Shown here: positions 9,861 to 57,808 of the stretch, one piece after another
How the letters are laid out: the number at the start of each line of letters is the position of its first letter
How positions within the stretch are numbered: the stretch's first letter is position 1
IMG/VR virus record: IMGVR_UViG_3300021255_002539
Location: 64,001-128,000 of that record
Length of the DNA stretch: 64,000 nucleotides
Origin: a virus
Taxonomy: Duplodnaviria; Caudoviricetes
Direction: 5' to 3' (one strand)
Notes under the pieces: generated by a model
Told to the model about the DNA's origin: nothing
What the model saw: only the letters and a program-made list of their open reading frames with translations
Databases searched by the model: none
Program-made: the position numbers and the translations under genes

Positions 9861-10700
9861 TCAGTTGAATATCTTGGCATTGAGGTCAAATGCACCAATC
9901 TTTGTGCAAATTGGGGTCTGCTTCACCTTCTTGAACGAAGAATCAACCCTGAACTTGTTCCACCACTCGCGGTATGTCAAGCACTTGTTGAACGCCCGCT
10001 TCATGGACGAACTCAACACACCACCGTTTTTCGAGTCGCCCCAGCTCACGGTCTCCTCACCGCAACCAGATATGACCAACATTCTCCGTGCCACATCACG
10101 CACATTCTCGAATTTGGCGAAGAATGGCTTTTCAAGTGGAAGTCTGTCCTCTTCCTCCACACCCTCCTCTTGTTCGGTTGGAAGACGGTAAATTGTTCCT
10201 GAGTGGCAGCAGTCCGCAATAAATAGAATCCTGCCCTTGCACCAGCCAAACATCTCCCAGAGGTCGTTGTCAATCAACGCGCCATCGTAGAGGCACAGGA
10301 ACTCGTCGCGACCATCTGTCTCGTCCTTCGCAGTTGAAGACTTGTTGTATTGCCCTCCATGACCACTGTATGTCAAGATGAGCAATCCATCCTCTGGAAC
10401 CTTCTCAATCTGCTCTGTCAAGGCCTTCTTGAATGCAGCCACTGTCGCCTGCTTGTTGTTGAGCCTCACGATGTTGTCAGTATATTGCGACACCATGCCA
10501 TACATCGTTCTGGAATCCAGATCTGCACCTGGACATACCCCCCACTTCGAGCTTTCCATTCCAACCACCAACGCGAACTTCTTGTTCTTGTCAGTCGTCT
10601 GGCAAATGTCCTTTACCTCGCATTCTGGGCAGTTCCCATTTGGGTCCGCCTTCTTGAACAGGCTCTTGATGAAGCCAAATATCTTTTCAAATAGTTTCAT
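9861..10700 (-). CDS. Metacaspase / peptidase C14 family protease
   Basis: ALVVG, YSGHGGQ (catalytic His), DETDGRDEFLC, ADCCHSG (catalytic Cys); GGAGG RBS; GTAAATA at 10731-10737. Confidence 0.85.
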   Translation of the reverse strand: MKLFEKIFGFIKSLFKKADPNGNCPECEVKDICQTTDKNKKFALVVGMESSKWGVCPGADLDSRTMYGMVSQYTDNIVRLNNKQATVAAFKKALTEQIEKVPEDGLLILTYSGHGGQYNKSSTAKDETDGRDEFLCLYDGALIDNDLWEMFGWCKGRILFIADCCHSGTIYRLPTEQEEGVEEEDRLPLEKPFFAKFENVRDVARRMLVISGCGEETVSWGDSKNGGVLSSSMKRAFNKCLTYREWWNKFRVDSSFKKVKQTPICTKIGAFDLNAKIFN

Positions 10701-10796: not shown

Positions 10797-11726
10797 ATGA
10801 AGATGAAAAAAGTGCTTTTAATAGTGGATGGTTCATACATTGCGTTCGTCTGCAATTTCCGGGCGTTCAAGACCTGGCAGGAGCAATATGCTGGCATGGA
10901 CACCTGCATAATCCGCCCACCAGATGAGTCAGACCAAGACAACTTGCCCGACTTGGTGAACGAGAGCCAGTGGTTCAAGAAGTGCCTCCACAACGCTGCG
11001 GTTGACAAGCTCAACTCGATAGCGACAATCGTCGAAAACTCCACTGGCATGATGTACCCACAAAGCACATTCGTGGACACCATCATAGCGAAGGACAGCA
11101 AGTTGGTGAAGTCGTTCAGGTACTCGTTGTATCCAGAGTACAAGCTCACCAGAAAACTCAATCGGGCAAAGAGGGGGCAATACAAGATTGGACCAGTATT
11201 CGACGAACTCTACACAAATGTGTTCCCCTCAATCTTCGGCGACCATGCAGTTCAGTTGGTTGTTGATGGTGCAGAGGGAGACGATGTGATAGCGTCAATC
11301 GCCAGAAGCCAGCGTATAGCAGATGACTACGAGAAGATAATCTTGATATCGTCTGACAGGGACTTCGTTCAACTTCAGATAGACAGACCAGTATCCCAAT
11401 ACGACGCGAAGGGTGAATTGGTGCTTCCGAAGATGAAGCATGGGGCAGAAACCATCAACCTCACCCCTCAACAAGCCTTGATGATTAAGATAATATCAGG
11501 AGACAGTTCTGACAACATCAAGCCAATCAAGCCGAAGATCGGGGAAATCCGCGCATTCAGGTACATCACAGAGAAGACTGATGAGTTCAAGAAGATGCTG
11601 AGAGAGGAACCAGAGGTGGCGCAGCACCTGATACTCAACTCCAAGCTCATCGACTTCAAGAACATCCCAGAGGAACTGTCCAAAAAGATCGTCGACGAGT
11701 TCTACAGCATCAAGACCTGGAACTGA
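10797..11726 (+). CDS. rnh: T4 RNase H-like 5'-3' exonuclease / flap endonuclease
   Basis: LLIVDGS, FRYSLYPEYKLTR, AEGDDVIA, ISSDRDFVQL, GDSSDNIK motifs. Confidence 0.85.
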   Translation: MKMKKVLLIVDGSYIAFVCNFRAFKTWQEQYAGMDTCIIRPPDESDQDNLPDLVNESQWFKKCLHNAAVDKLNSIATIVENSTGMMYPQSTFVDTIIAKDSKLVKSFRYSLYPEYKLTRKLNRAKRGQYKIGPVFDELYTNVFPSIFGDHAVQLVVDGAEGDDVIASIARSQRIADDYEKIILISSDRDFVQLQIDRPVSQYDAKGELVLPKMKHGAETINLTPQQALMIKIISGDSSDNIKPIKPKIGEIRAFRYITEKTDEFKKMLREEPEVAQHLILNSKLIDFKNIPEELSKKIVDEFYSIKTWN

Positions 11727-12481: not shown

Positions 12482-12613
12482 TGTGAAGGTATTTACACTT
12501 TTTGTAGGAAATATTGTAAATAGACATGTTGAAACGCCCGAGTGGATTCGACGCGAAAAAGTGTAAATAATAGCAACCAAATGGGTTTCTCCATCAAATG
12601 AGGTAAAAGAGAT

Positions 12614-13303
12614 ATGGCAAACTACAATCTAGTTCAAGCAATTGACTTGTTCAACCAGGATCAGGTCCGTACACAGCATATGTACGAGATCGACTTCTTC
12701 TCCGGGTTTCCGAAGATTGACGCGACGTTGACGAGAATGCAGGTGTATGGTCAGAACTTCACGCTCCCCGAGAGGACAGTGAACTTCGACAATGTTCAAT
12801 ACAGGGCTTACAATGTCCCTGTCCCAACCACATTGGAAATGACTCAAGATCACAGCATCACCGTCTATGCCGATGTGCGTGGCGACTTGAGAAGGGCGAT
12901 GCTTGACTGGCAGGCAGCATGCATTGACCCAGACATCAGTGGTGGTTCATACTTCGAGTCCAACAGGCGTCCAACGAAGCTTGGTCCAGGGGAGGGCGCG
13001 ACGCCCCAAATCACCGTGAAGCTTCTGGCTCCTGACTTCCAGACATGCATCGAGAAGACTGTGATATATGGAACGAGGGTGACGAAGGTTGGTGGTCTTG
13101 AACTCTCCAATACTGCTGGAAGCATCTCGACCTTCACTGTTGACTTCAAGTCTGTGTATTGGGAGCAGTTGCCAGGCGAAGGCACCACGGTTGGCATATA
13201 CAACAGGGACAACGCAAGGCACACCATCATGGGTCAGACCTACGCAGATGGCGACTTCAACAGGGCAACCGAGGATCCAATGGCGTCCGAGAACCACGTG
13301 TGA
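12614..13303 (+). CDS. Tail tube protein (T4 gp19-like)
   Basis: RTQHMYEIDF, FTLPERTV, SITVYAD..LRRAMLDW, ISTFTVDFKSVYW; GTAAATA at 12516 and 12563. Confidence 0.7.
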   Translation: MANYNLVQAIDLFNQDQVRTQHMYEIDFFSGFPKIDATLTRMQVYGQNFTLPERTVNFDNVQYRAYNVPVPTTLEMTQDHSITVYADVRGDLRRAMLDWQAACIDPDISGGSYFESNRRPTKLGPGEGATPQITVKLLAPDFQTCIEKTVIYGTRVTKVGGLELSNTAGSISTFTVDFKSVYWEQLPGEGTTVGIYNRDNARHTIMGQTYADGDFNRATEDPMASENHV

Positions 13304-13424: not shown

Positions 13425-15185
13425 ATGCGAGGAGACCCAACATATACGCAATACGACATGTCCGAGAGGGGGGAGGAGAAGAAGTACCCAAATTGGAAGG
13501 ATGCTGCCCCAAATCTGCAGACATTCCTCACTGCCCTCAACCAATCTCAACCAATAATCCAATGCCAATACGAATTGGTGTGGAGCAGATGGCCGAGGAC
13601 AATCTTCTTCGCAAAGAACATCACGATTCCTGGCGTATCTGTGAACACGCTTGACATCTCCCATGCTGGATTCACCATCAAGATACCAACTCACGTCACA
13701 TACGAAACCACAGAGGTCTCGATAAACATAATCGCTGACAAGGAGGGCTTCCACTACTACGACCTCAGGAACATGGTTCTGCAGACTGGACATCCATTGG
13801 TTGCTGGCGATCCAAGGGCCACAATTGGAAACCCATACGGACTGTCACCTGACGAGGACACATTGGAGGTCAGATTGCGCAACAGACCCGAGGACGAGAC
13901 CCACCACCACTGGATTCTGCACAACTTCCACCCAACTGGGATAGGAGACCTTGAACTGACCCAAGATGGTGGTGGATTCGTGGAGTTCGAGTTGAAGGGG
14001 ACGATAACCCATGTCACATACGATTGTGGAAACAGCAACGGAGAAATGCCACAACAAGAGCAGCAACAGCAAGAAAGCCAACAGGAAGGTTCGAGCAACA
14101 ACCCAATCGTGCAACTGGCGTAGTCCCCAACACTTGGCGTGTATGTATACAACACTGAAACCCACGAGGGCAAGTGGGAGCGAACAGGGCAGCCCGTTGA
14201 TGTGTCTAGCGTGGTTCTGCCACCTGGAACATCCCAATATGGCGACAATCCAGATCTGAACTACGACGGTTCATCCACGCAAAAGTGGAATCCACAGGAT
14301 TGGGATGGCGACCCAAACACCCAATACATCGTCAAAAGCGAAACCCTTACTGCTGCGAAGAAGGATGTTCAGGTTGATGGCAAGACGATGACAATGGTGA
14401 AGATTCAGGGGAACTTGACTCCAGAACAAACAGAAATACTGAAACAGGGTGGAACACAGGCATTGATCAACCAACTTGAGATGGAGAACAAGGAACAAGC
14501 AAACATCGACCAATATGCCGAGGATTTGCAGGAAATCAGCGACCAATCCAGAAACAGCAACTAGTCTGAGCAACAACCCCCAGAAGAAGACGACCAAAAC
14601 ACATCTGGATTTAAGATATAGGCGACGAAAAGCGCAGATGGCACATACACGATTGAAAAGGCAACCATGTTCAACTCGTCGAAGGTGTTGACGCAAGACG
14701 ACATGGTTGTGCAAACGCAGATACTCACATCACTGAGAAACGACTACGAAAAGTCCAAGGGAGGGAAGAACACTGTGATGCAGGCGCATCTAAAACGGCA
14801 AGTCGAACTGCAGGAGAAGAAGATGAAAGTGATGCAACAGTGGATTGACGAGCGAAATGCAGAACAACCCCAGACCAGAGGTGGTTCCCTTCCTGTTGGA
14901 TAGATGTCCCAAAGCCAATTGGAGCAGCTGAAGTACCTTTTCGAGGCGGTTCAATACAACTACGACCTGCCAGACAACTTCATAGTCGTAGTCAATCCAC
15001 TAGAGGAAATTGAAATATACAACCAGAGATTGACCAAGATGAGCCTCCCAGGGAGATTTGGAATGTACAAGTCCACAAAGAAGGATGCTGAGGAAAAACT
15101 GGACATAGACCCAGAAGACCCACCCTTCAACCCAAATCCAAGAAAAGTGGATCCCAACCACAAGGTCAGGGATATATTCGGGTGA
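13425..15185 (+). CDS. 586-aa tail-tube-like (gp19/gp54) protein with Gln-rich C-terminal extension (TAG=Gln at 14121, 14562, 14619, 14901)
   Basis: Four same-frame track ORFs joined only by TAG; FAKNITIPGVSV, NFHPTGIGDLEL, FVEFEL motifs. Confidence 0.6.
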
Positions 15186-15304
15186 TTCAGATTCGGAATT
15201 TCGTATAATTGAGGCATAGGTAAGTGTAAAGGGTGGTATTTACCATAACTTCAAGTAAAAGGATACATGGTGATGCTCCCAACCAACAAAGGAAACAAAA
15301 CACC

Positions 15305-15961
15305 ATGCCAAGAAGAAAAACCGAATCACTGGAGGAATTCCAGAAGAAGAACCTAGAGAAGTCCAAGATAAGATAGAGGTAGAGGGCGGAGCAGGAGAAG
15401 ACCAACCCGAAGCCAAAGCGCAAGCCATTCGTCAACAACGCAGAACTTCTGGACGAATTGAAGAAGTGGCGGGACTCCAACGAGGACGAGACAAAGAGGG
15501 TTCCATCAGAAAGGTTGGGGAAGATGATGCAGGACATAGCCACGCACTACATGGGACACCCAGACTATGTTCGATACCCCAAGGAAATCAAGGAGGACAT
15601 CATTTCAATGTCCTACGAGAGGATATTCAAGACTGCGATATTCAAGTACAACTTCAACTTCACGAACCCATTCGCGTACTTCACTCAGGTTTGTTGGAGC
15701 TGTGCGATGACCTACCTCAAGAAGCACTACGACTTTTTGAACTTCAAGAGGAAGCTGGTGAAGGAGAATCTGGAGAAGGCGATGGACGAACTCCCATCCA
15801 TCAACATAGACAAGTCCTACATGACCTTCCTGAAGAACATGATTGGCGCAGATCAGATAACTGAGGCAGACGCCAAGTTCCTGAAACGGCAGAAGGACTC
15901 CATCATCCAGGAGATTCTGACAGAGAAAGCCAACAACGAAGACGACGACAACATCAACTGA
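15305..15961 (+). CDS. gp55: Late-transcription sigma factor (T4 gp55-like; TAG=Gln at 15374, 15380)
   Basis: PFVNNAELL...LGKMM..IATH...KEDIIS...FTNPFAYFTQVCW motifs; the ATG with AAGGA RBS at 15305 needs two TAG read-throughs. Confidence 0.8.
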
Positions 15962-26519: not shown

Positions 26520-27782
26520 TCAAGCGACAATCAGCAGTCTGTCGTTTGACCTCGTTATCGCTGTATACAACCACCTGCTCTTGTATGCGTCGTCCCAGAA
26601 TCCTGATATTTCCTCGAACAACATCACATTCCCCCACTCGGAACCCTGAGCCTTGTGGACAGTGAGGCAATAGCCAAAGTCAAAGGAATCGAAGTAGAGC
26701 TTCTTCTTGCCAATCTTCCTCATCATCTTGCGCTCTGAAATCGTCAGCTTGGACTTCAGCTTCATCAACTCCCTTACGGTGATGAACTCCTTGCCATCAG
26801 ACGAATACTTCATCTGCCCAAATGGGGACTTGTTCACCAACCCAGAATATCCGAACCCATCGTCCACATCCACCGACATGGAATATACCTCCCCCAGTTC
26901 AGATGGCACCAGCCCCTTCGCGTCAGAAATTGAGGTGATTCGACCCAACATCCCATTGTAGATTGGCTCAGCATAGGACTTGTTGTTCCTCAGGCAAACC
27001 ACCCTGTCGCCAACCCTCGGTATCTTGTCCTCGAAATCCTCCACGATGCCATAGTTGGTTCTGATTAGCTGGTTCACATCCACCCTCGTGTTGTTCGTCC
27101 CACACAGGCAAACGCCATTGGAAAAATCACCAAGGTGATTTAGGATGAAGTCGTTCACCAATGGATCGTTCTCGTTCACCTTCGCCACCTTGTCGTCGAA
27201 TTGCTTGAAGGGGATGTCATCGCCATTTCGCGCCATTATCGACAAGTCGAGCAATGTGCTGTTAGACCCAAACCTATGAACCTCCTCCAACCTTATCTGG
27301 GGGTTCTCCATCAAGTTGAACTGGTCTGCCGAGATTGGTGGCAACTGACCATGATCCCCAACAAACAAAATCGGAATCCCATACATCCTCAAGTCCTGGA
27401 ACAACTCCCTGTTCACCATCGACGCCTCGTCCACTATGATGAGGTTGTAGTCAAGGTAGGTGACGCGCTCAAAGACATTCAACTTCGTCTCAGGATCCTG
27501 CCTTACCCTATAGCAAAGGGAGTGTATTGTCCCAACATAGTCGTTCGACCGAATGGCGTTCGCGTCAATCAACTTCTCCTTCATCACGCCAGAAGCCTTG
27601 CCAGTATAGGCGCAAAAGGCCACCCTCCACCGCTTTGGCAGCTCCTTGCGCACCTCTGCTATGAGGGATGTCTTGCCAGTTCCAGCATATCCACCCAATG
27701 TGAGATAGGACATCCTGTTCCTGGAGTTTACCCAGTCCATGATTGTCTTCTTCGCGTCTATCTGATCCTTGCTTAAGTCCAT
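26520..27782 (-). CDS. dda: Dda/RecD-like SF1B DNA helicase
   Basis: GGYAGTGKT, IIVDEASMV, VGDHGQLPP, YCLTVHKAQGSEW, LYTAITR motifs. Confidence 0.85.
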   Translation of the reverse strand: MDLSKDQIDAKKTIMDWVNSRNRMSYLTLGGYAGTGKTSLIAEVRKELPKRWRVAFCAYTGKASGVMKEKLIDANAIRSNDYVGTIHSLCYRVRQDPETKLNVFERVTYLDYNLIIVDEASMVNRELFQDLRMYGIPILFVGDHGQLPPISADQFNLMENPQIRLEEVHRFGSNSTLLDLSIMARNGDDIPFKQFDDKVAKVNENDPLVNDFILNHLGDFSNGVCLCGTNNTRVDVNQLIRTNYGIVEDFEDKIPRVGDRVVCLRNNKSYAEPIYNGMLGRITSISDAKGLVPSELGEVYSMSVDVDDGFGYSGLVNKSPFGQMKYSSDGKEFITVRELMKLKSKLTISERKMMRKIGKKKLYFDSFDFGYCLTVHKAQGSEWGNVMLFEEISGFWDDAYKSRWLYTAITRSNDRLLIVA

Positions 27783-36710: not shown

Positions 36711-38696
36711 TCAGAACTCCGTCAGCACATTGTATTCTGCCTCTCCATCGTCCCATTCATCCCCATTTGCGAAGTCGAAGGTCTCGTTGATGGCGAAGAA
36801 CTCCCGCTTGCTTCCATGACCCCATTGTCTGTTTCCATAGAACAACTCGTCGTCTGGGATGTCCCTTTCTGTTGCAGCCAATTTCACGACCTTGTGTTCC
36901 TCCAGGTTGCCAAGTTGCGAGACAATGCCCTTGTTCGCCTCCAAGTTCACGGTCTACTCCAACAAGCTCTGGTCAAATGGGGATGTGTACACTACCTTCT
37001 CAGGAAGAACCCTGTCCATCTTCGTCTTGAATGCCTTTACCACCGAGTAGTGTTGGGTTATGACATCAGCAAACAGCAGGTACATTCCCCATATCCATGT
37101 CAGCATATAGTCGTCGTGGCACTTGTCCTTCGCAGCAAAAGTGATTGAGTTCGAGGTGTTCTTCCTGACGAATGTTCCCATCTCGTTCACCAGAAGTTCG
37201 TCGGGTATCGAGATTTCTATTTCGTCGGTCGTTATCAGCTCGTTGAGGAACATGCATGCCTCCAACTTCGTCTTGTTCTTGGACTTCACGCCATAGGTTA
37301 TCTCGCCATACTTGCCAGTTGGGGAAATAGCCTGCTCGTAGAACATTCTGTCCCTGGGGTAGTTGTAGGTATCCAACATGATGTCCACGAAACCAGAGCC
37401 AACGCCATTGTTCTCAACTATGAATGGAGGGAACGCATAGAGCTTCAGGAACTCGTATGTGGCATATCCGAAATCCACCAATGTCGCCTTTGAGCAAGAC
37501 ATACGCGCCACCAACTGGATGTGCTTGACATCTGTGACATCCCAGACATTTGCCACAGACGAGTCGTTGCCAGTTCCCTCAGAGATGTCCCCAGAAGCAG
37601 CATATGTCCTGGTTGGGTCAAACGGCTTCCAGAAGTTCGCGGTTATTTCCTTGTCTGGGTTCTTGGAGAGGTTCAACTGGGCTGGCTTGGGGTAGTTCTT
37701 CAAGTTCATTCGGAAATGCTCTATGTCCTCAGATGGGACAAGCGAGGCGTCGCCAGCAGACTTGAACTCGCACTCAAACTCCTGCAACCACCTATTCATT
37801 CCAATCGTGGCAATCTGCTGCCGCTTCCATTCCTCGTCACGACCAGGAACATCATACCACAAGAATCGGAAAGCCTTCCAGTTCTCAGCCTGCACGATGT
37901 TGGGGTCAGTAGCCTGCTGCCAAGTGTCGTAGAACAGGTTGTTGGAGGTTCCGTTTGGCGTGGATACCATGATTGCCTTTGAGTCCTTTGAGGACGAAAG
38001 CACAGGGAACACGGAAGCCATGAACTCGTCTGCTATTCCTTTAGGAATGAAGGCCGCCTCATCCATCACGAGAACATTGGCTGAGAAACCACGACAGCCG
38101 CTTGAACCAGTTGCAAAGCACCTGATTATCGAATTGTTCTCGAATTCTATGCACTTCTTGTTGTATGTAGTGACACCTATCTTGATTTCGGATGGGCAGT
38201 ATTCATAGCCCAATCTGATTCTGTCCATGATTTCAATGGCTATGTCCAGCTTGTTGCCACATACCATTATTCGCTTGTCTGGATGGTACATGGCATACCA
38301 AAGGAGAAATACTGTGTATATCGTAGTATTATGAGACAGTATGCCATTCGTCAGGTAGAGGTGGTTACTATCGTCTGACAACTAAACATCATACATATGC
38401 TTTGACTTTCCTATGTTGTCCACCTAAACAACTTTCACAAGTCCATCCTTGCATCTAATGTCCAATCCATCAGAATCCTTTGCAAAAACCTGATTGCCCA
38501 TCTTGTCTATGAATATGTGATTGTCTGCACATTCCAATGTAGTGCCATCCGAGAATCTAACCAGGTATGTCTCGTACTTTACGGTCTTTCCGACATACTA
38601 TATGTCGTTCCACACCACATCCCCTTCTTCGTCAAGAGATGCAATCTACCAGTTCTTCAACGAGAATAATCCTATGAACTTCTTAATCGGATTCAT
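36711..38696 (-). CDS. terL: Large terminase C-terminal half fused to split-intein C-fragment (IntC 38328-38696, 123 aa) (TAG=Gln at 38646, 38598, 38424, 38382, 36954)
   Basis: Own ATG at 38696; Hint motifs LECADNHIF, MYDV, YLTNGILSHN|T; then gp17 ATPase (VMDEAAF, VSTPNG) and nuclease (GDISEGTGNDSS, HDDYML). Confidence 0.85.
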
Positions 38697-39858
38697 CTTC
38701 ACACCTCGCAATGAAATCCAAGCACTTGGCTATTGCCTACTGTCTATTGCTCTTGTATTCCTCATCTGTCACGACGAGAATCTTGTAGCCCTTTGATGCA
38801 ATTTCCCTTCTTCGCATCTCATCATACTCCTTGTTTACCTCGCCATGCCAGTGCAATCCATCATATTCAACTACACACATCGTTTCAGGTATGCAATAGT
38901 CCAAGTAGAAGCATCTGCCGTTGTCGCGCTCAAAAACCAATTCGTTGTTCTGCTTGTCTCCGTTTAATGCAAACCACGCCTTGTGTTCCTTGTTCGTTCT
39001 CTTGGCTTCAATCTCCCAGAACATCGCCTATGACTCGTAGCTGAATCCATTTACTGGTGGAATGTGCGGACACTTTGATTTGTTGATGTCAAACATCTCT
39101 TGTTCTGACCTATTGTATAGAGAGCGAATCCATCTTCTCTGCCTATCTTCGTAAATTCGCTTACCTTCCTCCTCGCCATACTTCTCAATGCACTTCTCCA
39201 ATGTGAATGTGCGTTGCCGCTCACTCAACTTCTTCTTCGCCTCCTCTTCTGAATACCCTTTGTTGAGCCAATATTCCAAAGATGTCGTATGCACTATGCT
39301 CGCGTTGTTTTTCTTGGCGCGATTGAATGCAGCATCCTCTTTCTGCTCGTCGGTCATGTTTTCATAGCCAACGAAGTTCTTCGAGAATGGCGAGAACTTT
39401 CCACCGTGGTTATAATATGGATTCTTCACTTCCATCAATTCATGATATGCCTTCTTCTGGAATTCCTCGCTATCCGGAAAACACAATCTACACAACTCCT
39501 TGGAATTTACTGTCTTTGGATGTTCCAACTACCAAGGAAGCACACTGTCAAAAAACACATCGAAATCAGTATCGTTGAACTATCTACAGTGTGAAACTAT
39601 TCTATGGAATACATTGAACTGACTATTCCAGATGTTCTACTTGTGCAATTTCCCTATCTTGGCATATACTCGCTTTAGGTACTTCTCAACAATTTCAATC
39701 GCAATTCCTGAGAACTTGGTGGAAGAACCGACTCGTTCACTCAACACCATCCACTCAACATCCGTAAGCCCATGCTCTTTCAATAGATGCTTGCGTATGG
39801 AATTGGACTTGAACTCCTTGCCACAATATGGACATTCTATCTCGATATTCTTAAACAT
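38683..39858 (-). mobile_element. Free-standing Vsr/DUF559-like homing endonuclease (391 aa; TAG=Gln at 39637, 39580, 39529, 39028, 38737)
   Basis: N-terminal CPYCG..HLLKEH zinc finger, GYSEEEAK..Q.TFTLEKCIEKYGEEEG repeats, C-terminal YLDY...VVEYDGLHWH...GYKILVV; different frame from both terminase halves; TAA stop. Confidence 0.75.
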
Positions 39859-39893
39859 TGGTAATTCCCCACTTGTCGTGTTGTCATTACTAT

Positions 39894-40391
39894 TTACACC
39901 TTTCTCCCAAAAAACTTCGCCAACCAATACAACACGCCAATCGGAATTGGAATCTTCAGCCACTTAAACCACCTATGACGAACCCACACTATCGTTCCGA
40001 AGGACACACACTTTCCCACCTAACGTGACGCACAGACAATTGCTCTATTGTTGTCCTGGATGAACTTCAACAACTCGGCCTGCTTTGGATATGGATTGAG
40101 CGTCACCAAGCCATCCTTCAACGACACAATCTTGAAGTACTTGCGGCAGAAATATAGAATGTCCTGCTTGCATTTCCTGATTTCCCTGGCTCGACGCTTG
40201 AATTCCTCTGGAGTCAGAATCTCCTTCTCGCCGGCCTTCTTGATTGAAGCAAGCTCCCCAGTTGGATTGCCCGACTTCTTCTGTTGCTGAACCAACTATG
40301 CAGACGCCAATTGAGGGCCTTGTGGCTTTTCCTACCCAAGATCCAGATTCTCGAACTTGTCGATTGTCGGCTTCTCTATTCCTAATCCCAT
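39894..40391 (-). CDS. terL: Large terminase N-terminal fragment (127 aa) fused to 38-aa split-intein N-fragment (39897-40010) (TAG=Gln at 40332, 40296, 40020)
   Basis: KCKQDILYFCRKYFKI..LNPYPKQ..CASR[TAG]VGK|CVSFGTIV...; ends at TAA 39894. Confidence 0.85.
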
Positions 40392-40394
40392 ATA

Positions 40395-41114
40395 TCACGC
40401 TTTGAGTCCCCTCGTTGGACTTGGAAGAACCAATGAATTGCCTTTAGTGGAATGCCTCACAAGATATGTGAATATGTCATGTGGATCGTTTAGTGTGGAA
40501 GGGACAATGAAATTGCAATCGTATTTCTGATATTCATCTGGAATGCCGTTTGCGAGGAAGTCCCTCATCAAATTATGTTCCAATTCAGACATCAAGTGCG
40601 TGTCCATGCCACGGTGATACCAGAATGCGAACTCGTCGAGGATGAGGGTGTTGTTTCTGTCGTGCCAATCCACGCAAGTCAAGGCGTGTGGCGAGACGAA
40701 GTGTATTCTTTCTGAATCGAGGTCGAATCCACCCGTGTTGGAGACGTTTGCGAACAATTCCCCTACCCTTTTCGCCATTGCCATGTTTGGTTCTACAATC
40801 CAGACTTTGTGATCCGGGAAAAACAGATTCTTCCAATACACGAACACGTTGTTCGCAGTAGAGATTCCAACCTGGCGTCCCTTCGCGCAGAAGAAATAGT
40901 CCCTTGCCGTGGACACTCTCTTGAGATATTCCCTTTGCTCAGGCGAGAGCTGAATGGCGTTTCCCAAATGGTCTCTGACCACGAGGTACTTGTCCACGAA
41001 ATAGAGAATGTCGTCCTTGCATCTCTCGAATCCCGTCCGAGAGTCGATTGCAAACGTTGGCGTTACGGCAAGCGCAACCAACGAGCCAATAAACTGTTTT
41101 CTGTTCATGTCCAT
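40395..41114 (-). CDS. Truncated terminase-ATPase paralogue with degenerate Walker A and Tat-like N-terminal leader
   Basis: CKDDILYFVDKY, LSPEQREYL, KGRQVGIST, LILDEFAFW, IVPSTLN; no nuclease domain; MNRKQFIGSLVALAVTPTFA leader. Confidence 0.7.
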   Translation of the reverse strand: MDMNRKQFIGSLVALAVTPTFAIDSRTGFERCKDDILYFVDKYLVVRDHLGNAIQLSPEQREYLKRVSTARDYFFCAKGRQVGISTANNVFVYWKNLFFPDHKVWIVEPNMAMAKRVGELFANVSNTGGFDLDSERIHFVSPHALTCVDWHDRNNTLILDEFAFWYHRGMDTHLMSELEHNLMRDFLANGIPDEYQKYDCNFIVPSTLNDPHDIFTYLVRHSTKGNSLVLPSPTRGLKA

Positions 41115-41259: not shown

Positions 41260-42384
41260 TCAAACCTCGTAGTCTTCGTTGAGGTTCTTGCCGAACTTCG
41301 CCCTCCACTCCTTGTACTTGGGGTGGCGCATGAGGTTCATCACTGCGGTGCCCTTGGGGATGCGCTCGGTTCCCTCACGGGCCTGAGTCATCGCGGTGGT
41401 GGCGAAGGCGGGCGGAAGTCCCATCGAGATGCGGAGGAAGCCATCAACGAGCTTCTTGGTCTCGGCCTCGTCCTTGCCCCGCCAGATGTGGTAGACCATC
41501 GCAGAGGTGAGTGCGAACTTGAGGTCGTCGCGGCTCGGGATGACAACCTTCTTGCTGGGGTTAATCATCATCTCGTAGACATTCTCCAGGTTGTTGGCAA
41601 TCTTGAAGAACTCCATGAACTGCTGACCAGTAGGGACGCCAACCAGACCATAGACTGCCTTGCGAAGCAGGGTCTCGTTCTTGAGAATCTTGCACATCTC
41701 GGAGACGCGCTCCCAAGAACGCGGGGTCGGGAAGCCACGCTCCAGGTTCTGGTCGTCCACGCTGAGAAGGAGCTGGGGCTTGAACTGGATGAAGCCAACG
41801 ACCGCCGGATGGACGCCATGCATGACCGCCCAAGTGATCCAATCCTGGGCATCCGCCTCAATCTCCAGGTGCATCATGCGGTTCGCAAGTGCGCTGGACA
41901 TCGTGGTGGAGACGGCGCGGTCGCAAGAACGGTTGCCTGCAGCCACGATAATCCACTTGGACGGAACCTTGTAGATGTCGCCACCACCAAGCTGGCGGTC
42001 GAGAATGAGCTCGTAGGAAGCCACCTGGACATCCTTCGGCGCGGCGCTCAACTCGTCGAGGAAGATGATGCCACCCTTGGAGTTGTCGGTGGGGAAGATG
42101 GAAGAGGGTAACCATTGCACACAATGGTTATCCTTGTCGGGAAGGGGGAGACCACGGATGTCGATGCTCTCCATCTGAGCGAGACGGACATCCACGAAGC
42201 CAAGACCCATTTCCTTGGCGAGGGACTTGACGATGGTGGACTTGCCAACACCAGGCGCACCCCACACCATCACCGGGGGAAGCGAGGACGAGAGGGACTC
42301 GTCCGCCTGAACACCCTCAAGCGAAGAACGAAGAATGTCCTTCAGCTCGTTCGCGTGAACCACATTGTGCGTATCTATTGCCAT
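41260..42384 (-). CDS. MoxR-like AAA+ ATPase (early)
   Basis: WGAPGVGKS, IDIRGLP, IIFLDEL, AAGNR, ALANRM, FPTPRSWE motifs; AGGAG RBS; GC-rich codon use, no TAG. Confidence 0.85.
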   Translation of the reverse strand: MAIDTHNVVHANELKDILRSSLEGVQADESLSSSLPPVMVWGAPGVGKSTIVKSLAKEMGLGFVDVRLAQMESIDIRGLPLPDKDNHCVQWLPSSIFPTDNSKGGIIFLDELSAAPKDVQVASYELILDRQLGGGDIYKVPSKWIIVAAGNRSCDRAVSTTMSSALANRMMHLEIEADAQDWITWAVMHGVHPAVVGFIQFKPQLLLSVDDQNLERGFPTPRSWERVSEMCKILKNETLLRKAVYGLVGVPTGQQFMEFFKIANNLENVYEMMINPSKKVVIPSRDDLKFALTSAMVYHIWRGKDEAETKKLVDGFLRISMGLPPAFATTAMTQAREGTERIPKGTAVMNLMRHPKYKEWRAKFGKNLNEDYEV

Positions 42385-42502: not shown

Positions 42503-42610
42503 ATTTGATGAAAAACGAAGAAAAACGCCCGGAAATTGGAAGATTTGGATTGGAAGTTCAATTGGATAGACGAAAACCAATTTAGTTTTCCAATTTCCGG
42601 GCCATCAAAT
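42503..42610. repeat. Long intergenic inverted repeat (15-bp perfect arms 42527-42541/42588-42602; outer 8-bp arms 42503-42510/42603-42610)
   Basis: GCCCGGAAATTGGAA / TTCCAATTTCCGGGC and ATTTGATG / CATCAAAT. Confidence 0.75.
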
Positions 42611-45600
42611 CACTGTTGATATGGTTCGTAGACATTGTTGATGTGCTCGGTGTCCTTTGCGATTCCGAACATCATCTTGGATATTCTCCACGCGCAATAT
42701 CTTTCGGGTTCAGGAAGGGATCCAATAACCTTGTACTTGTACCACGCAATCAGGTCCAGACCTGGGTGGTTGGTCTCGAACACATCACCCAAGTTGTAGT
42801 TAGGTGGCAGTGCTGAAGTTGATCCCATTCTGCAGCAATACTCCCATTGTGCCTCTGTTGGAAGGTCGAAGTTGATGCCAGCTTTCTGGCCAGAATACCA
42901 ACCAACTGCCTAACCTGGTTCATATGATATGACCTCGCCACCATCCACACCATCTATTTCAACCTTCCTGGGCTTAGTCTCGTACACGACCTTGTTATTG
43001 AGAATGTCCATGAAGGAAGTCGTTCCAGTCCTTGAATTCATCTGGAACTCGTCGCCCTTTGTGTTCCTGGTGAGTTCATCATATGTTATGGTGTATTTCG
43101 CACCATCGCTTCCACCGACTTGCTTATATACCTGCCCCGTTCCCCTGACCTCGTTGTATGTGGCGTAGTAGTATGGGCGGGTGTCGTCAAGTGGCTTGTA
43201 CACTCCATCTTCAGTCAACTCCCGAATGAAAGTATCGTCGTCGTCCACAGTATATCCACCGCGCACTTGGACAACCACTGGATCAACTTCGATGATGTCG
43301 TCTTCCCACGCAATTCCCCTTCCTCCGGGTCTTGCCTTGTTTCTGTATTCCTCCTTCAATTGCGCCCACTCGTCCTTCTCCCACACGGACAAGTACTTCC
43401 AATAGGAACTCTCGATTTCACGTATGTTGGCACTCAACAATCTTCTTGCTTCAGATTGCGATGGTGTTGTGCCATTTGCCCTCAACTTGATGTAGCACCA
43501 CTGGGCAATCGTCAGCTCGAATGGGTCGATGAAGAAGTGCTTGTTGCGCTGGTATTTGCTGTTTTCTGTGTCTCCTGCCTTTATTGCGTACAAGTCATGA
43601 TCCACATCAGTGTTCTTCTCGACATCGACCCTCTTCTTTTGGTAGGAACCACCATTGCCCAGTGTCACGGTGATGTGGTCGTCAATCGCTCCATCTGGAT
43701 TGGATTCTATATCACGGTACTTCCTGGCTTCCATGTCAGTGACCAGGTCGTAGTCGGACGAATGGCTGCCCATCTCGAATATATCGAACTTTCTTCCTGA
43801 TATGCTTGGGATTCTCAACAACAGCAACTTGTCCTTCTTGTAGAGATCCGTGTTGATGTCGGGCAATGTCCCAAAAAACTTCATTGGGAACTTCCCTGCC
43901 GTGGATTGTTCATTGGAGTTCAAGTCTATTATGCACGAATTGTACGAGAACGAATTGGCAGACGACAAGCTCTCGACTTTTGTTCTGGCAGAGTTGAATA
44001 TCTGATCCAAACCAGAGACATCTTGAATTGGCAATGCTGCCATTTTCACGGAACTGTCCTTGTTGGCGTAGTCCACGACACTCACCCCATTTCCATCAAC
44101 CATGTTCCCAAATACCTGGGTTTGGTATCTATATGCCAATTGAACGGGGGCGGATTTTTGTATATGTTCGTACAATTCATCCATTTTCGGACATATTGCA
44201 GTCCATATGGCGGAATATGCTGCCTTGCACTAGACGGTTGGGTTTTCATTAACCGTAAACCCGTTAAGTTCAATTTCCGAACTATTTGCCAAACAATATT
44301 GAACCCACTTCCAAGCCTTTGGATAGGCGCGGGGTTGGGTTGGGAGATGTTCGCTGTCGAACAAATTCTCTCCGACAATTTGACCATATACTGACAAGGC
44401 ATCGTAATTGGCGGGGAGGTTTGTGCCATTGAATGGTCCATTGAGTTTCCATATTTTGTTGTCCAGAGGCTTGATGGAACCATTGTTTCCGGATGTATCC
44501 TCTCCAAATATCTTTTCATTTCGCGTTATTATCTTCAAATGACCAGTAACAACCTTGGTTGATTCGTTATTGTATGCGTACTCCAATGTAACCATGTCGG
44601 TTGGAGGGGTTTTGAATATGTCACTGGTTTCTGTCTGATACGACGGTATCCCATAACCACTCACCCGGCCGCCGTTTGAATCCAGGTTTTCACTGTATAT
44701 CATGCTCTCGCCAGACACAAAATACCTGAACATGCAAAAGTGCGATCTACTTGAGTTAATTTTATTATTATTGTGCAGGTCTATACAAACACCCAAAATC
44801 TCCATGTTCTCGTGATCCAGGAAATTCTTGTGGAAATAATCAAAGCTACGCCTGTCGTCGGAATTCCAATATGTGCTTGGGTTGCTGTGTGGGAGATACA
44901 CAATGTGCTTTTCCACCCAGTCTTTCAGACCGTCCGACCACCCGGCCGGTGGTTGTGGTCGATAAGTCAAATAGTAGTCTCTAACCTACTTCAAGAAAGC
45001 AACATCAATTGCCTGCCCGTCTGGCAACAAATCTATTCCCTCAAGTACAGCTGCATCGATGTCAGGATTACTCTTCTTCAAATAATTCACAATTTTTTCC
45101 CGCCAGGCCGCAATCGAAATTCCACCATTGGTGATGCTCAACCCACTTGGCAACCCAATCAGGAAATACTTGTATCTATCTTTCTACTTTTCGTTTTTAG
45201 CATCATTGAGGAATGTATCTATGTCATATGTTCTTTTGCCTATTATAGTGTGGTTGGATGTATATGGATTTTCAAGTCCAAATATCGTGGGTATTGCAGA
45301 TACCCATCTGGAGTTTATCGTACTCTATTTGTCTTGATAGGGGATTGGATTCCTCATTCTACCATTATTGCTCAGTATCCATTGCAGATTCGACACGACC
45401 AATGTACCGAAGTCCCATTTCGTTCCTGCCCATTCCTCCTTCTGCTCCTCATGGCAATCATTCCACAAGGCCTTTTTGTCGGTTCCAGTTGGGATAGAAG
45501 CATTTATCGTGCTCTGCCAATCTTCAGGAAGTTCAATCTTCAACATGTCCTTGAACATGTCTATGTCGTTGTATGGGAACAAATGTGTTGGGTCAGTAGT

Positions 45601-48600
45601 GTCGTCATGTACTGGATGGGGTGCGTCAGAATCCATCACGAACATATACACATTGGTTGGATCTGTGGTATTCGCCATGGAATCCATCAACCTGTAGTAG
45701 CCAATTGTCTTTGCCATTGTGTAGTCGATGGACTTTATCCTGTCTTTCTGGGCCTTTTTTGCTGTTGTGGTTATACTTTCTATCGTATAGCCCAGTTCAG
45801 CGAACCTTCCTTGTTTTATGAGTTCTTTCTGTTCCTTGGTCAACAAGTTCTCCGCCGAACAATCTGCCAATGGGGAATAGAATCCATTCAAATCCAGATC
45901 TTCTATTTCCAAGTCTCTGGTCTACGATAGACCCCCAACTCTCTTGTAATCCCAATTCAAATAGCCATTCTCCAATGTTGTCTGTCCATTCAATCCCATC
46001 CTGGTTGGGATCGGGATCGTCCAAGTTATCTTTTGTCCACCATTCTTTTTCTCCAGTTCAGAACCCCTAAAGGTGAGTTCTGTTATCCTTTGCTTAATCG
46101 GTAGAATTGATGTGATTGGTCCAAGCCAGGAGTTATACAAGTATTCCAATGAAGAAGAATATTCATTGCCGTCCAACCCGATTTCTGTCAAGTAGTCCCT
46201 AACCTAGGTCTTCAAATCTTCATCTCTGAACAACCTCAGTGAGTGGGGGTCTGGTGGTTGTTGGGAATCGTTCAACTTGCTTCCAGCATCAACATAGAAT
46301 GCCAGTTTGTTCCCACTCATTGTGGTTGGGAACGACACCAATTCGAAATCGAAATCCCTGAATTCGGCGTCGTTTGTGCCTCCAAAATAGTGTTTTGCCA
46401 CACGGGAGAACGAGTTGTCGAACTCGTTTGAGAACACGAATATCAACCTGGGGACATTCTTTCTGAACATGAACGCCTAACCCCTGTTCCATGGTCTGGC
46501 ATAGAAGTATCCATCCCTGATAAGCTTGTCCAACATGTCGCAGACGGGTTCGCAACCAGCCCACCAACTGGACAAGGTTCCATTGTCGTTCTACGCAAAT
46601 GGCCATTCGTATATGTCAGCCTTCTCCTTGGAGATGTCGTAGGTGAATAGGTTATAATTGTGCTTGAATATGTCCCCTTTCGTCGCATCATCTGAATATT
46701 TTTTGTAGTTGTCCCCCGATACATTGCCGTATGTCAAAACATCTCCGGATCTATATACTGGAACACCACAAAAGATGTCGACTTTCTTTTCAATTTTTTT
46801 GGAATAACGGGTGATTGTATGCCCCTTCCATGGATCACCCCCACCACCACCGATGAATCTACCGCTATGAGATGATCCACCAGAACTACCACCATCCCTC
46901 AATGACATTGTTGAAATGGATTCATCGTCGCCCACCCCAAACGACATCTTCTTCTGTTCGGGAAGTACATTGGATTTGACAGTTCTGATTGACGCACCAT
47001 CCTGACGGCCTTGCCATTCTTCCATGTACTGTTTGAACTTGTAGCACAATCCACTAGGCTGTCCAGATACATCCGTGCTGTTGTTTATCTTTTGTATTTT
47101 GCCGGTATGGTATGTACCATTAATAATATCGCGTTCTTCATCTTCTGCCAGGTCTATCCAATCCTTGCATTCAGGTTTCATTTCCCCGTCTTTGTGGTCT
47201 CGACCCTATGTATATGGTGAATTTTTCCAGAATGAGCTATGCCAGCTATGCCAATCCCCGGATTTTGTTGTTCGATTAGTAATTTTGTATCTGCAATATG
47301 CTGTTTGGCTGACATCCTTGACTTTCTGCCCACACATCATGTGAATTGTCGGTCCCAGGAACAAGGCGGATGCAACATGGCACTTGTCCTTGATGTCGTC
47401 GTTGTCGTTGCCGTCAGTGACTTTGCCAGCATATAGCTTTACGATTTCATTGGCTTGTTCAACCATCTTCTGAATTTGGCTGTCGTTTGATGCCGATGCG
47501 TCGAAGAGGAAGAACAAGTCAACAGGTCCAGTTACAACAGTGGAACCAGATTCGCCATATGCAGTGAATGTCATGGATGGTCTGAACCCAACATTCTCAT
47601 GTGTGGAGTTCTTGGACTTGTTCTGTTTTCTGCCTATGCTTTCCCTGGCTGGGGATATCGTGTTCCTCGCGAATTGATCGAACGCACCACCCTTGATGAC
47701 CTTTTCTGTAGTTGTAATATCCCCCTTGGTTCCAACGATGTGGTTTACAGACGAACCAGCGTGTCTATCGCTCCAGTCGTCCCTCACGAGTTCCCACACA
47801 TTGCCGAGCATGTCGTACATCTTGATGTCTGAACTGGGGGCATTCAATTTGCCAACCCTGTGAATCATGTAGTCGTTGTAGGACCACTCGTATCTCCAAT
47901 AGAGGCTTGGAACAACCTGGAATGTTATGCCCTTCATGTCCTCCACCGTGAGATCGTGTACATCCTTGTCCATCGTCTCCATCGAGGTGTATACTGGGAC
48001 AACCTGCTTGTTCATCACAGTTTGTTGTATCCTGCGAACCCATCTGTTCGTTACATCATCTGGGTGATATTCAGCAAATGGATACATCTGGTCCAGGTCA
48101 ACCAACTGGCCAAACCGCTCTGTCGTGTCAACTAGGCTCTACTGGAGTGTCTGGAAGTCTCCAATTACATATGAGGTTGGGAGGTCGCCATACTTGTGCC
48201 CCTTGAAGTAGCCATGCAGGTCTTCCTCTCCTGCATTTGGTTGGTCTGGCCTTATTCCATCCTCGTCGTCTGAGGCATCCATTCCTGCCAGGGACAGAAC
48301 CCTAAACGAGTCTGTGCTTTCCATTATCTCCTTGTAGGTCAATGACGCTCTGGCCATGTCGTTTGACACGAGTTGGCTGAAGGTGCTGTACTTGTTGCTC
48401 AACCTGCGCTTTTCAGCAGCAATCTCGTCATTTGTCAACCTCACATCCCCAGTGAACAGAACGAGCGAGGCCTGATGCTCCCTGGCGTTCCTCTCCAGTA
48501 TGGATGTCACCTCTATGAAGGAGTTTGTCCACTTCACCAGGCAAGGTTCTCCATAGTTGGTGGAGATGTGGTCTATGTCTCCGAATGTGCTGCGCTGTCC

Positions 48601-51600
48601 TCCAAGCGTCTTCTGCCTCGCCTTGAATGTCCTGTAGATGCCCTTGACAATCTTCTTGGTGTATGTCTCCAGCTGGGTCCAGGATGTCATATCGTCACCC
48701 AGTTCCCTGTTCCTGTTCTTGAAGTACTTGATGTAGGCGTAGTGCCGAACCACATTCCAGAGGTTCCACACAATCTGCCTATTCTCCATCGAACCAAGTA
48801 TGTCCTTGTTCAAGTCCCCAGGCACGGCCTTTGCCACCATGTCTGTCTCACCATTGGAGTACTGTCCCATGAAGTACTTGTCGGCAATTGGGTCTTCGTG
48901 TTGGTTCGTTCCAAAGTCGTTGCTTGGGTGGTGTACCTTCCACTTCTCGTCAGTTCCAGCGTAGTTGGGATCGAACGCCCCCTTGTACACATTGCCAGAG
49001 TTGTCTGTCGTCAGAACGGCGTGTCCATTCGCGTCCTTCGCGAAGTCGACTCCCAGGGTATGGGCGACCGCATGCCACCTCTGCTCGTCCTTCACGATTG
49101 GCTTGTGTACCTCTTCCCCAGTGGCAGTAACAGTGGTCTCCTCGTCCTGCCTCTCGTGTGCGCAACTCCAGCACCAACCACCCTCTTGGTAGTTCAACTT
49201 CGCGCTGCTGGACAATCCATAGCAATCCACATCTGGACCGTTGTTCTTTACGCCCCTGTTGTCCCACCAGAACACATATGGCATTATGTCCTCAATCTCC
49301 ACCACCTGATCAATCTAGTCCATTGGCTCAACCATCGTGATGTAGAACCAAACGGAATCCTCGTCGAAATCGTCTATCGCATGTGCCTGACCCAGGTTGT
49401 ACTGGTACTTTGGCGAATTCACATAGGAGCCCGTCATGTCATAGTCGTCAACCCAATCCTGCAGGGGGAACCTGGGATTGTCTGGGAGGTTTTCGTATGC
49501 AGATCCATAGACGCCATTGTAGGTGTCTGGTTCGTGGTCCTGGTTGGTGTCCAACATCGTCAACTGCTTAAGTGTGTTGAGCGAAATCAAGTTGTTGTGC
49601 AATTTGGAGAGGATTCTGAGGTTGTTGTCCCCATGGTGATGGCGCGCCAGGAACTCGCAGGAATCCACCATGTCGCCGAAGTTGGGGTCAGCGCGCCTGT
49701 CCATGAAGGACTGCTCGAATATGACGCCATTTATGTGGTTGGAGGTGGTTGGGAATGCGCCAGAAGTCAAATCCAACATGTCACTGTACACTTCGCCATT
49801 GCGCCCCTTGTTGAAGAACGGCTGCATGAAGTATGTCCAATCCCTGTTGTTGTACAGCCAGCACCATGTATTGGCCGCCTTGTCCTCCCTCGTTGTTGGG
49901 TCGATGTATATCCTCTGCAGGTCAGAATCCATCTGCAGGAAGTTGCTGCCACACACATGGTTGTGGTGGTCGTAGGAGGATGGAACATACAGCGCGCCCT
50001 CGTTGTACTCCATGTCAACCATCGTCTTGGATGGGATTGTACACCAACCGAAAACGCCATAGTCGTTCTTCTCGTCGCAATCGCACTTCAAGGTCTGACC
50101 CTGACAATCGTCGAATATGTCCCTGACCTCTGGCATCGCAACTGGCCTGTACTTCTTCACGGTGGATGTGAACGTCTGAACCTGCTTGTTCGTCCTCGCA
50201 ATTGGATTCAACTTGTGCTTGATGAAGTCGGTTATGTCTGTTGGGGATTGCACAGAGGTGTTCTCGTACAGGCAAATTGGGCTGACGACATACATCATTT
50301 GCTCGTCTGCCAACTCTGGATGCAGTCTTTGACTTTGCTCTGCCCCAGAATCCCTTGTCTTGTTGACCCCCAACCACTCCTTCTTGTAGTCGTAGAAGTA
50401 GTGGAAGTCGTTGTACTGAACGCCAGTAATCTCCACGTTCACTGGGCGTATTCTCCCCTGGGCATATTCGCCAGAAGTACAACATATCAACCTGTCTCCC
50501 TGAACTTGGTTTGCGGCATGGAAGTTGGAGAACTTCAACTCGATGGTTGGCTCAAACGATATCCACTTCTTGTCGTCCTGGTTGTGCCAAACCTGATTGT
50601 CGTCTGGTCTCTCGCACACAATCTTGTCCTCGGATCCAGCTTGTTCACAAACCACCTTGTCCCCCTCTCCAACGCACATTATGTCAGAGCCAGTTGTGTA
50701 GCCATACCACCAATTGGATGGCTCGGGGACATCAATCTTGAGGAAGTACTCCTGGTGCGCGATGTCCAGGTTGATCTTGAGCAAGGCATTCAACAAAACC
50801 TCAACGTCGCCTATGTCCATTATCGACAACTGACGGAAGTCGTTTTCCTGCTACTTGTATGTTGGTTCCCCATACATGTCGACCAGCATCTTCACATATG
50901 GGCAATTCCACAGTTCCTCGAAATGCTTACCACTTGCAGTTGGGTCCAATCCACACAACCCACAATGAAAACTGGATTCGGTTGAGTCAACAACGAGGTT
51001 GGAGCAATCAGAAAACACATCCTAGTCAATCTACGACTGTTCAACCTCCACGGGAATTTCGTTGTCTTCTTGATGCTCAATGGATCCAAGGTCCATCTCC
51101 ACAACCTCGTCGTAGACAGCGACAAACACCATGTCAGAAAGCACCGTGAAGGATGAGGACAAGTTGCCAGACTCCAGCAGCCAATATCTGAACTTGAACT
51201 GGTGTCCATCATCCGTAGTGTAGTGGTTCTGAATGTGGAAGTTTGGAATTCTGCAGTTCTGAACGACATCAAACCTCTGTTCTGTCCTGGTCCCACCCAC
51301 ATCCATGTACTTGAACACGACATTGAGCATGCTGTTCTTGATTTCAACGACAACAGCCTCGTTCACAACGCCGTATTCTGGCATTTCTCCATTCTCGCAA
51401 ACAATTGGTTCTGATGTATCACCACACACAATTGGCTCGGCGTCTTCTCCACATACCACAAACTCGTTGGAATCGACGCCACCTATGTAGCTGCCATTTG
51501 GAATCGTCCAACCACCAAACTTGAATTCAGTATCCACCAGTTGTGGATCGTGGTCTGGAACGACCATTTGGTTCTTCTTGTTGTCTATCAGAACCTCGCA

Positions 51601-56580: not shown

Positions 56581-56704
56581 GTCTTGTGTTCCTCTTCTTG
56601 AATTGACAAGTAGTATTTACATTATCCAATTATACCAACAAAAGGCAAATTCGGACACCCATTCAAGGATGCCCGAATTCCTGATTGCTTGTGTCGGTTG
56701 CCCA

Positions 56705-57757: not shown

Positions 57758-57808
57758 GTTTTGTAGTCCTCTTAAAACCATTGGTTCAAGAGTATTTACA
57801 AAAACACA

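Follow-up and report, generated by a model that had tools for sequence, protein, structure and literature searches.

Does a change of genetic code control the late sigma factor of this phage, and through it the late genes? The window analysed here, a stretch of 64,000 nucleotides corresponding to bases 64001-128000 of a complete 414,060-bp virus record (G000), carries a gene for a gp55-family late sigma factor in which two in-frame TAG codons precede the conserved body of the protein. A preliminary description of the window had proposed that full-length gp55 could be made only once TAG suppression is active, which would couple recoding to the middle-to-late transition.

The genome has direct terminal repeats, 48% GC, T4-like genes, about 28 clustered tRNAs and one tmRNA. 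Greedy longest-ORF coding density did not tell the genetic codes apart in G000, and we judged the code by a codon-usage frame score. A same-frame coding signal was present on both sides of TAG in 156 cases, versus 42 for TGA and 39 for TAA. With a gene caller that permits TAG read-through we obtained 438 genes, which end in TGA (294), TAA (126) or TAG (18); 95 of them hold a total of 267 internal TAGs. A 418-kb relative, also complete with terminal repeats (G001), was compared with G000 over its full length. The commonest partners of TAG between the two genomes were CAG (24) and CAA (15), together 39 of 134 aligned sites, and only 7 of 149 TAG positions were common to both. Therefore, G000 reads TAG as Gln, and the positions of its TAGs turn over quickly. 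Whether a gene bears TAG at all was nevertheless kept in 34 of 42 genes.

The gp55 gene and the features discussed below are listed in Table 1. Its product matches PHROG_234, 'late sigma transcription factor' (E=3e-17; residues 36-205 against profile positions 4-178 of 181), as well as, in a profile comparison, T4 gp55 (PDB 7d7c_F; E=4.7e-9, residues 5-145). By tblastn, annotated late sigma factors of cyanophages and of one pelagiphage match it at 31-33% identity, while a Pfam search returned no family and one sub-threshold chance match. When an AF2 model of the protein (mean pLDDT 76.7) was searched against the PDB with Foldseek, 7d7c_F was the top match (prob 1.00, TMt 0.60, E=1.1e-3), and sigmaE region 2 structures came next. 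The phage protein is thus alike T4 gp55 in sequence and in fold over its whole sigma-region-2-like body. There is one copy of the gene in each of the two complete genomes. For the gp45 sliding clamp, which together with the gp33 co-activator is a partner of gp55 in the T4 family, the Pfam families PF09116 and PF02916 were without a match in G000, where a divergent homologue is possible. The start codon given in the preliminary description, an ATG with a ribosome-binding site, holds: a Shine-Dalgarno-like sequence precedes it, and AGGAAAC is kept in the leaders of all relatives.

Table 1. Features of the gp55 locus and of the suppressor tRNA gene (window coordinates unless marked as genome coordinates)
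Feature	Position	Strand	Remarks
Sense GTAAATA late-type promoter of the tail-tube-like genes upstream of gp55	12563-12569	+	distances 51 and 98 nt
Tail-tube-like genes	12614-13303, 13425-15185	+	PHROG_45 tail tube matches
Sigma70-type promoter core ATTTCGTATAATTGA upstream of gp55	15198-15212	+	TATAAT at 15204-15209
Antisense late-promoter-like GTAAATA in the gp55 5' leader	15237-15243	-	fits the extended late consensus
Shine-Dalgarno-like AAGGAAA	15289-15295	+	10-16 nt before the gp55 ATG
gp55-family late sigma factor CDS	15305-15961	+	218 codons with TAG=Gln, TGA stop 15959-15961
Clade-specific N-terminal extension, codons 1-40	15305-15424	+	predicted helix 9-33, then basic linker
In-frame TAG, gp55 codon 24	15374-15376	+	TAG in 9/14 homologues, CAA/CAG in 5
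In-frame TAG, gp55 codon 26	15380-15382	+	TAG in 7 of the first 10 homologues, CAG in the rest
FVNNAELL motif, start of the canonical gp55 body	15428-15451	+	aligns to T4 gp55 residues 9-17, YVNNKELL
Non-canonical tRNA(CUA)	genome 297902-297980 (L010:2902-2980), outside the window	-	cloverleaf, CCA end

Because the alignment of the family profile and T4 gp55 begins at residue 36 of the phage protein, the TAGs fall within a clade-specific extension of about 31 residues. AF2 predicts a helix in this extension with a pLDDT of ~80. T4 gp55 and the standard-code relatives lack this conserved N-terminal helix; in particular, distant standard-code gp55s (L038 and L039, 30-34% identity) have the usual short N-terminus, with no extension and no such TAGs. 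The phage gene, by comparison with that of T4, contains 1-3 in-frame amber codons depending on the relative.

If the TAGs ended translation, codons 1-23 would be a separate leader peptide or uORF, and the sigma factor would start downstream. Residues 1-20 are indeed almost invariant, more conserved than the rest of gp55, every relative has a TAG at codons 24-26 able to end such a peptide, and standard-code gene callers do predict an N-terminally truncated protein (35 of 40 database clusters are N-terminally short). However, codons 27-41 of the G000 gene contain no ATG, GTG or TTG, and most relatives likewise have none between the TAGs and the FVNN motif shared with T4. The first conserved candidate start, TTG 15458, lies downstream of FVNNAELL, so its use would remove the family's N-terminal motif. 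Furthermore, among six representative homologues the pairwise differences were mostly synonymous both before the TAGs (codons 1-23, 94 synonymous versus 38 non-synonymous) and after them (codons 27-40, 70 versus 32). This purifying selection argues that both flanks are translated in the gp55 frame. Finally, every variable TAG site within the gene alternates with CAA or CAG among the relatives. Judged on these comparisons, the TAGs of gp55 are translated, and as Gln; separate translation of a leader peptide seems very improbable.

As the preliminary description had noted, the TAGs at codons 24 and 26 come ahead of the conserved motif with no ATG between. With purifying selection on both flanks, no intervening start codon and one gene copy, full-length gp55 can be obtained only by TAG read-through, as that description had inferred. 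The FVNNAELL motif, similarly, is reachable only by read-through from ATG 15305. An assembly or sequencing artefact, or a decaying pseudogene, has nothing in its favour except the presence of the stop codons themselves; we consider it practically negligible, given that the same pattern recurs in 14 independent assemblies from several data sources, that purifying selection extends throughout gp55, and that neither of the two complete, terminally repeated genomes has another gp55 gene.

The comparison proposed in the preliminary description, whether gp55 homologues keep their N-terminal TAGs, was made with 13 further distinct homologues (73-78% amino-acid identity) from IMG/VR, JGI, ENA and Logan assemblies. 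All 13 do so, with compensatory turnover, and at least one TAG is present at codons 24-26 in 14 of 14 homologues when G000 is included. Other TAGs in the extension occur at codons 18, 28, 30 and 33, while the remaining ~180 codons contain 0-2 per homologue. Pooled over the 14 sequences, the ratio of TAG to CAA plus CAG was 26:20 in the extension and 7:89 elsewhere (OR 16.5, p=3e-10, without phylogenetic correction). Put differently, TAG makes up 57% of Gln-type codons in the extension, compared to 18-20% at codons 21-30 genome-wide. In G000 both TAGs are followed by A (AGG).

A gp55 tree was built from codons 41-160. TAG24 and TAG26 are present in both of its major clades, TAG30 has about three origins, and TAG25 was gained twice (in L001 and in L041/L043), exactly in the lineages missing both 24 and 26. 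Differences at four-fold degenerate sites between homologues are 0.27-0.81, near saturation. Retention of a TAG in 14 of 14 homologues together with the gains of TAG25, against a positional retention of 5% genome-wide, argues that selection has kept the presence of an amber codon in the gp55 helix rather than its exact site. Under a generous null, in which each Gln site is TAG with the frequency of 0.35 seen in the first 20 codons genome-wide and there are ~8 lineages, the outcome that all lineages keep a TAG has p~0.1.

Where, then, do TAGs lie in other genes? In the window, the genes for RNase H (10797-11726), Dda (26520-27782), an AAA ATPase (41260-42384), NrdD (54367-56580) and NrdG (58258-58773) have no in-frame TAG, nor does an SbcC-like gene, while many are found in the terminase, tail-tube-like, head protein and 3880-aa ORF genes. 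Among Gln-type codons in G000, TAG accounts for 6% genome-wide and 12% in TAG-bearing genes. Within the latter it has a share of 31-36% over the first 10-20 codons and of 9% past codon 200, and the CAA/CAG ratio is raised only within the first 10 codons. Enrichment of TAG in the first 30 codons was found in both complete genomes (OR 3.3 and 2.8), among genes whose N-termini are conserved between the two (OR 4.5, p=3e-5) and, as a start-proximal effect, inside genes of at least 300 codons (OR ~2). In the TAG-bearing genes of both genomes, sense TAGs are enriched 2-4x relative to CAA/CAG in the first 15-60 codons. An A follows sense TAG with a frequency of 0.40-0.51 genome-wide, versus 0.33 for CAA/CAG. 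Thus gp55 is an extreme form of a 5'-proximal TAG rule that is seen in late genes.

Such a rule also allows an explanation with no regulatory role, in which TAG is one more Gln codon that piles up near 5' ends, in a mutable Q/K/R-rich extension where failed read-through is cheap. The fast turnover of TAG positions (7 of 149 shared) and the drop of the TAG fraction with codon position in all TAG-bearing genes agree with this account, as do the poor conservation of extension positions 21-33 and the occurrence of TAGs in non-virion genes such as that for a GT11 glycosyltransferase, which carries three. It does not readily accommodate the persistence of a TAG at codons 24-26 in all 14 homologues despite near-saturated synonymous sites, the excess of TAG in the extension over codons 21-30 genome-wide, or the appearance of TAG25 exactly where 24 and 26 were both lost. 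In addition, Q13 is CAG in every sequence that we tabulated codon by codon, which argues against a general C-to-T drive. We therefore view a neutral or cost-driven origin as unlikely, while still a serious competitor.

Upstream of gp55 lies a sigma70-type promoter core, ATTTCGTATAATTGA. Its TATAAT is found 93-103 nt upstream of the gp55 ATG in the relatives, and the consensus of the TATAAT class in G000, TTtac-N17-TnGTATAAT, has the sigma70 layout. The 120 nt before gp55 contain no sense GTAAATA, in agreement with the preliminary description, which had placed a TATAAT and not a sense GTAAATA before the gene. The T4 gp55 gene has a sigma70-type rather than a late promoter. The phage gene likewise stands behind a sigma70-type and not a late promoter in the comparison with T4 gp55 (7D7C/7D7D). 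The 15-mer ATTTCGTATAATTGA has only five exact copies in the 414-kb genome, at 79198, 280760, 298023, 362169 and 367987; one lies before gp55, one before the tRNA(CUA) gene described below, two in the tRNA cluster, and one before a gene for a 213-aa protein. It may represent a promoter sub-class that co-regulates gp55 with tRNAs.

The GTAAATA motif of the preliminary description is real. There are 118 copies in G000, of which 88 (75%) are intergenic, in a genome with 11% intergenic DNA. The sites are oriented and mostly precede a start by 30-49 nt, they are enriched upstream of virion genes, and the 87 sense sites give the extended consensus T-rich...AAT[G/T]GTAAATA. Like the T4 late promoter, TATAAATA, the motif is short, -10-only and A/T-rich; unlike it, the phage motif starts with G. 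It is presumably the sequence that gp55 recognises. The motif is associated with TAG-bearing genes, which make up 40 of the 84 genes with GTAAATA and 55 of the 354 others (OR 4.9, p=2e-9), whereas genes with TATAAT are TAG-poor (13 of 119, OR 0.35). About nine TAG-bearing genes have a TATAAT-only promoter, and gp55 is among them. The split into TAG-bearing and TAG-free genes does not cleanly match the promoter class, since 44 of the 84 GTAAATA genes are TAG-free and the GT11 glycosyltransferase gene contains TAGs. The preliminary description was correct that rnh, dda, nrdD, nrdG and the AAA ATPase gene are TAG-free, but its label 'early' is doubtful for two of them: nrdD, an anti-restriction-like gene and nrdG (54367-58773, minus strand) each have a sense GTAAATA 36-42 nt upstream and no TAG. 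Genes that bear no TAG can thus have late-type promoters as well.

The gp55 leader itself contains a GTAAATA in antisense orientation, which faces the TATAAT from ~27 nt downstream. In 9 of 10 relatives scanned it is kept at positions -62 to -72 relative to the ATG, and 12 of 13 upstream sequences show it. Once gp55 is active, transcription from this site could occlude or collide with the gp55 promoter, giving negative feedback, or could yield a short antisense RNA. A terminator-like hairpin on the minus strand (15114-15099), downstream of the antisense GTAAATA, was discarded as a candidate because it is not conserved and because such matches are no commoner than in shuffled sequences. On the plus strand, a terminator scan found none between the tail-tube-like genes and gp55, and late read-through transcription from these genes into gp55 is therefore possible.

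Neither ARAGORN (default, relaxed and intron modes) nor Rfam found a tRNA(CUA) in the whole genome or in the tRNA cluster. Nevertheless, one gene at genome positions outside the window (Table 1) folds at minimum free energy into a cloverleaf with a 7-bp acceptor stem, G73-CCA and the anticodon loop CUCUAAC. It is odd in that its T loop has 8 nt and no TTC and its D loop lacks GG. A homologue in IMGVR_UViG_3300021399_000102 (L051) differs at 13 positions, with all 21 of 21 pairs intact and CUA retained; the changes include three compensatory ones and one wobble change, and the L051 copy has C33. Taken together with its covariation, the G000 gene reads as a real, non-canonical tRNA. Because U1-A72, G2-C71 and G73 form a Gln-like acceptor end, we infer that it is charged with Gln. 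Exact matches to the anticodon arm in other IMG/VR phages were set aside, as they are not homologous and hold no covariation information. A second tRNA-like gene (genome 367853-367926, minus strand; Rfam tRNA, 43 bits) was rejected as a suppressor, its anticodon being CAU; there, CAU sits in a 6-nt loop, or in an 8-nt loop if the closing pair opens.

The tRNA(CUA) gene has its own promoter on one side and a hairpin terminator on the other, and the core of this promoter is identical to that of gp55 over 15 nt. Next come genes for Pth2 (E=5e-9) and for a stand-alone YqeY domain protein (E=1.6e-27), and the three could form a candidate code-change module. Genes for a release factor (PF00472) and for GlnRS (PF00749) were not found in G000. 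The relative G001 has a canonical tRNA(CUA) behind a promoter and leader homologous to those of G000. A DNA search of G001 with the G000 tRNA gave no match; the Pth2 neighbourhood of G001 lacks a tRNA(CUA), and the one that G001 does have is 2 kb from there and differs in its body. Past the terminator of the suppressor tRNA, both G001 (268550-268560) and L051 (~770-790) contain an overlapping TATAATTGTAAATA or TATAATTATTAGTAAATA, in which an early-type and a late-type promoter motif are fused.

Since gp55 has 1-3 TAGs close to its start in this phage and in all 13 relatives, late gene expression is probably blocked until the phage's own suppressor tRNA works. In the mechanism that we propose, host sigma70-RNAP would transcribe both the gp55 mRNA and the suppressor tRNA. 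Ribosomes would halt at codon 24 or 26, releasing a peptide of 23-25 residues, until charged tRNA(CUA) outcompetes RF1. Only after suppression would gp55 build up and redirect RNAP to the ~85 GTAAATA promoters, whose genes are TAG-rich, and TAG-laden late mRNAs would in this way be withheld until they can be decoded. We regard a read-through gate on gp55 that operates as such a feed-forward interlock with the phage suppressor as evenly poised between right and wrong. The conserved antisense late promoter that faces the gp55 promoter may add negative feedback to the interlock.

The shared promoter bears on the timing. The preliminary description spoke of a 'code switch' and tied it to the middle-to-late transition. 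The tRNA(CUA) has a sigma70-type promoter of its own, with a 15-nt core in common with gp55. The arrangement therefore suggests co-expression in a feed-forward interlock, a brief delay or attenuation of dosage more than a switch from middle to late. The 'code switch' is probably an early or middle rather than a late event. With this early-type promoter, tRNA(CUA) could be suppressing TAG by the time the gp55 mRNA appears, in which case the gate would only delay gp55 briefly or lower its yield.

A purely quantitative role, in which incomplete suppression at 1-3 tandem TAGs holds gp55 low and tunable through infection without setting any timing, would fit the variation in N-terminal TAG number from one to three among relatives, as expected for tuning. 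It would also suit the shared promoter type, through which suppressor and gp55 are probably co-expressed, and the odd structure of tRNA(CUA), which is possibly inefficient. However, a weak ribosome-binding site or promoter would do the same without a stop codon. In E. coli, an A at +4 affects stop-codon read-through as a context effect, and the A at +4 after the TAGs of this patch, together with the A bias genome-wide, suggests selection for efficient read-through. For these reasons we find attenuation without timing distinctly unlikely. Returning to the interlock, a further reading, somewhat less likely than not, is that selection keeps the amber as a movable 'lock' in the gp55 helix and that this, with the 5'-proximal TAGs genome-wide and the shared promoter core, would order the steps from suppressor to gp55 to late regulon.

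Protein output set by competition between release factor and tRNA at an in-frame stop is familiar from the Q-beta A1 protein, from MuLV gag-pol, where UAG is read as Gln, and from RF2 autoregulation. In Q-beta A1 and MuLV gag-pol, low-level read-through by normal tRNAs sets the ratio. The phage gp55 resembles these cases in that the output of an essential protein is tied to release factor-tRNA competition; it differs in the genome-wide reassignment of the codon by a dedicated phage suppressor and in the gated product, which would be a transcription factor.

For gut phages, recoding of TAG to Gln (code 15) has been proposed as a regulator of late and lysis genes, with recoded codons enriched in the families of structural and of lysis genes (Borges et al., bioRxiv 10.1101/2021.08.26.457843), and stop-codon recoding has been validated by metaproteomics (PMC9523058). 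Like those phages, G000 has its TAGs mainly in structural and late genes, with none in replication genes, has a phage suppressor tRNA, and is depleted of TAG as a true stop (18 of 438 genes). The difference is that here recoded codons lie in the master activator of late transcription, which would move code dependence upstream of the whole late regulon. The text of Borges et al. (bioRxiv 10.1101/2021.08.26.457843) makes no mention of a sigma or transcription factor or of a 5'-proximal TAG bias, and none of its eight families matches the 414-434 kb T4-like clade in genome size. A search of the literature for gp55 together with recoding gave no match. The idea of recoding as regulation is thus already known, and what is new is the presence of TAGs in the gene for the late sigma factor.

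[quoted passage not shown] A 2026 survey of jumbo phages reported code 15 in rumen jumbo phages, many of them without a detectable suppressor, and a non-canonical tRNA(CUA) fits that observation.

Do phages use stop-codon recoding as a regulatory device, or is it a tolerated quirk? The question can be asked sharply, and in a testable form, of gp55, where an amber codon has been kept with compensatory turnover in a single transcription factor over a whole late regulon. For annotation, the case means that standard-code gene callers truncate this sigma factor and that standard tRNA finders miss the suppressor.

Other genes of the window are of interest in their own right. The 3880-codon ORF (42610-54252, minus strand) contains 20 in-frame TAGs and has a GTAAATA 39 nt upstream. 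The large terminase gene is in pieces (36711-41114, minus strand), with a main part at 36711-38702 that contains 5 TAGs, two N-terminal-like fragments at 39894-40391 and 40395-41114, and between the main part and the fragments a 391-aa ORF, also with 5 TAGs (38683-39858); the gene may have been invaded by an intron or endonuclease, or duplicated. A caspase-family gene (Peptidase_C14, E=4e-17; 9861-10700, minus strand) is TAG-free and has a GTAAATA 37 nt upstream.
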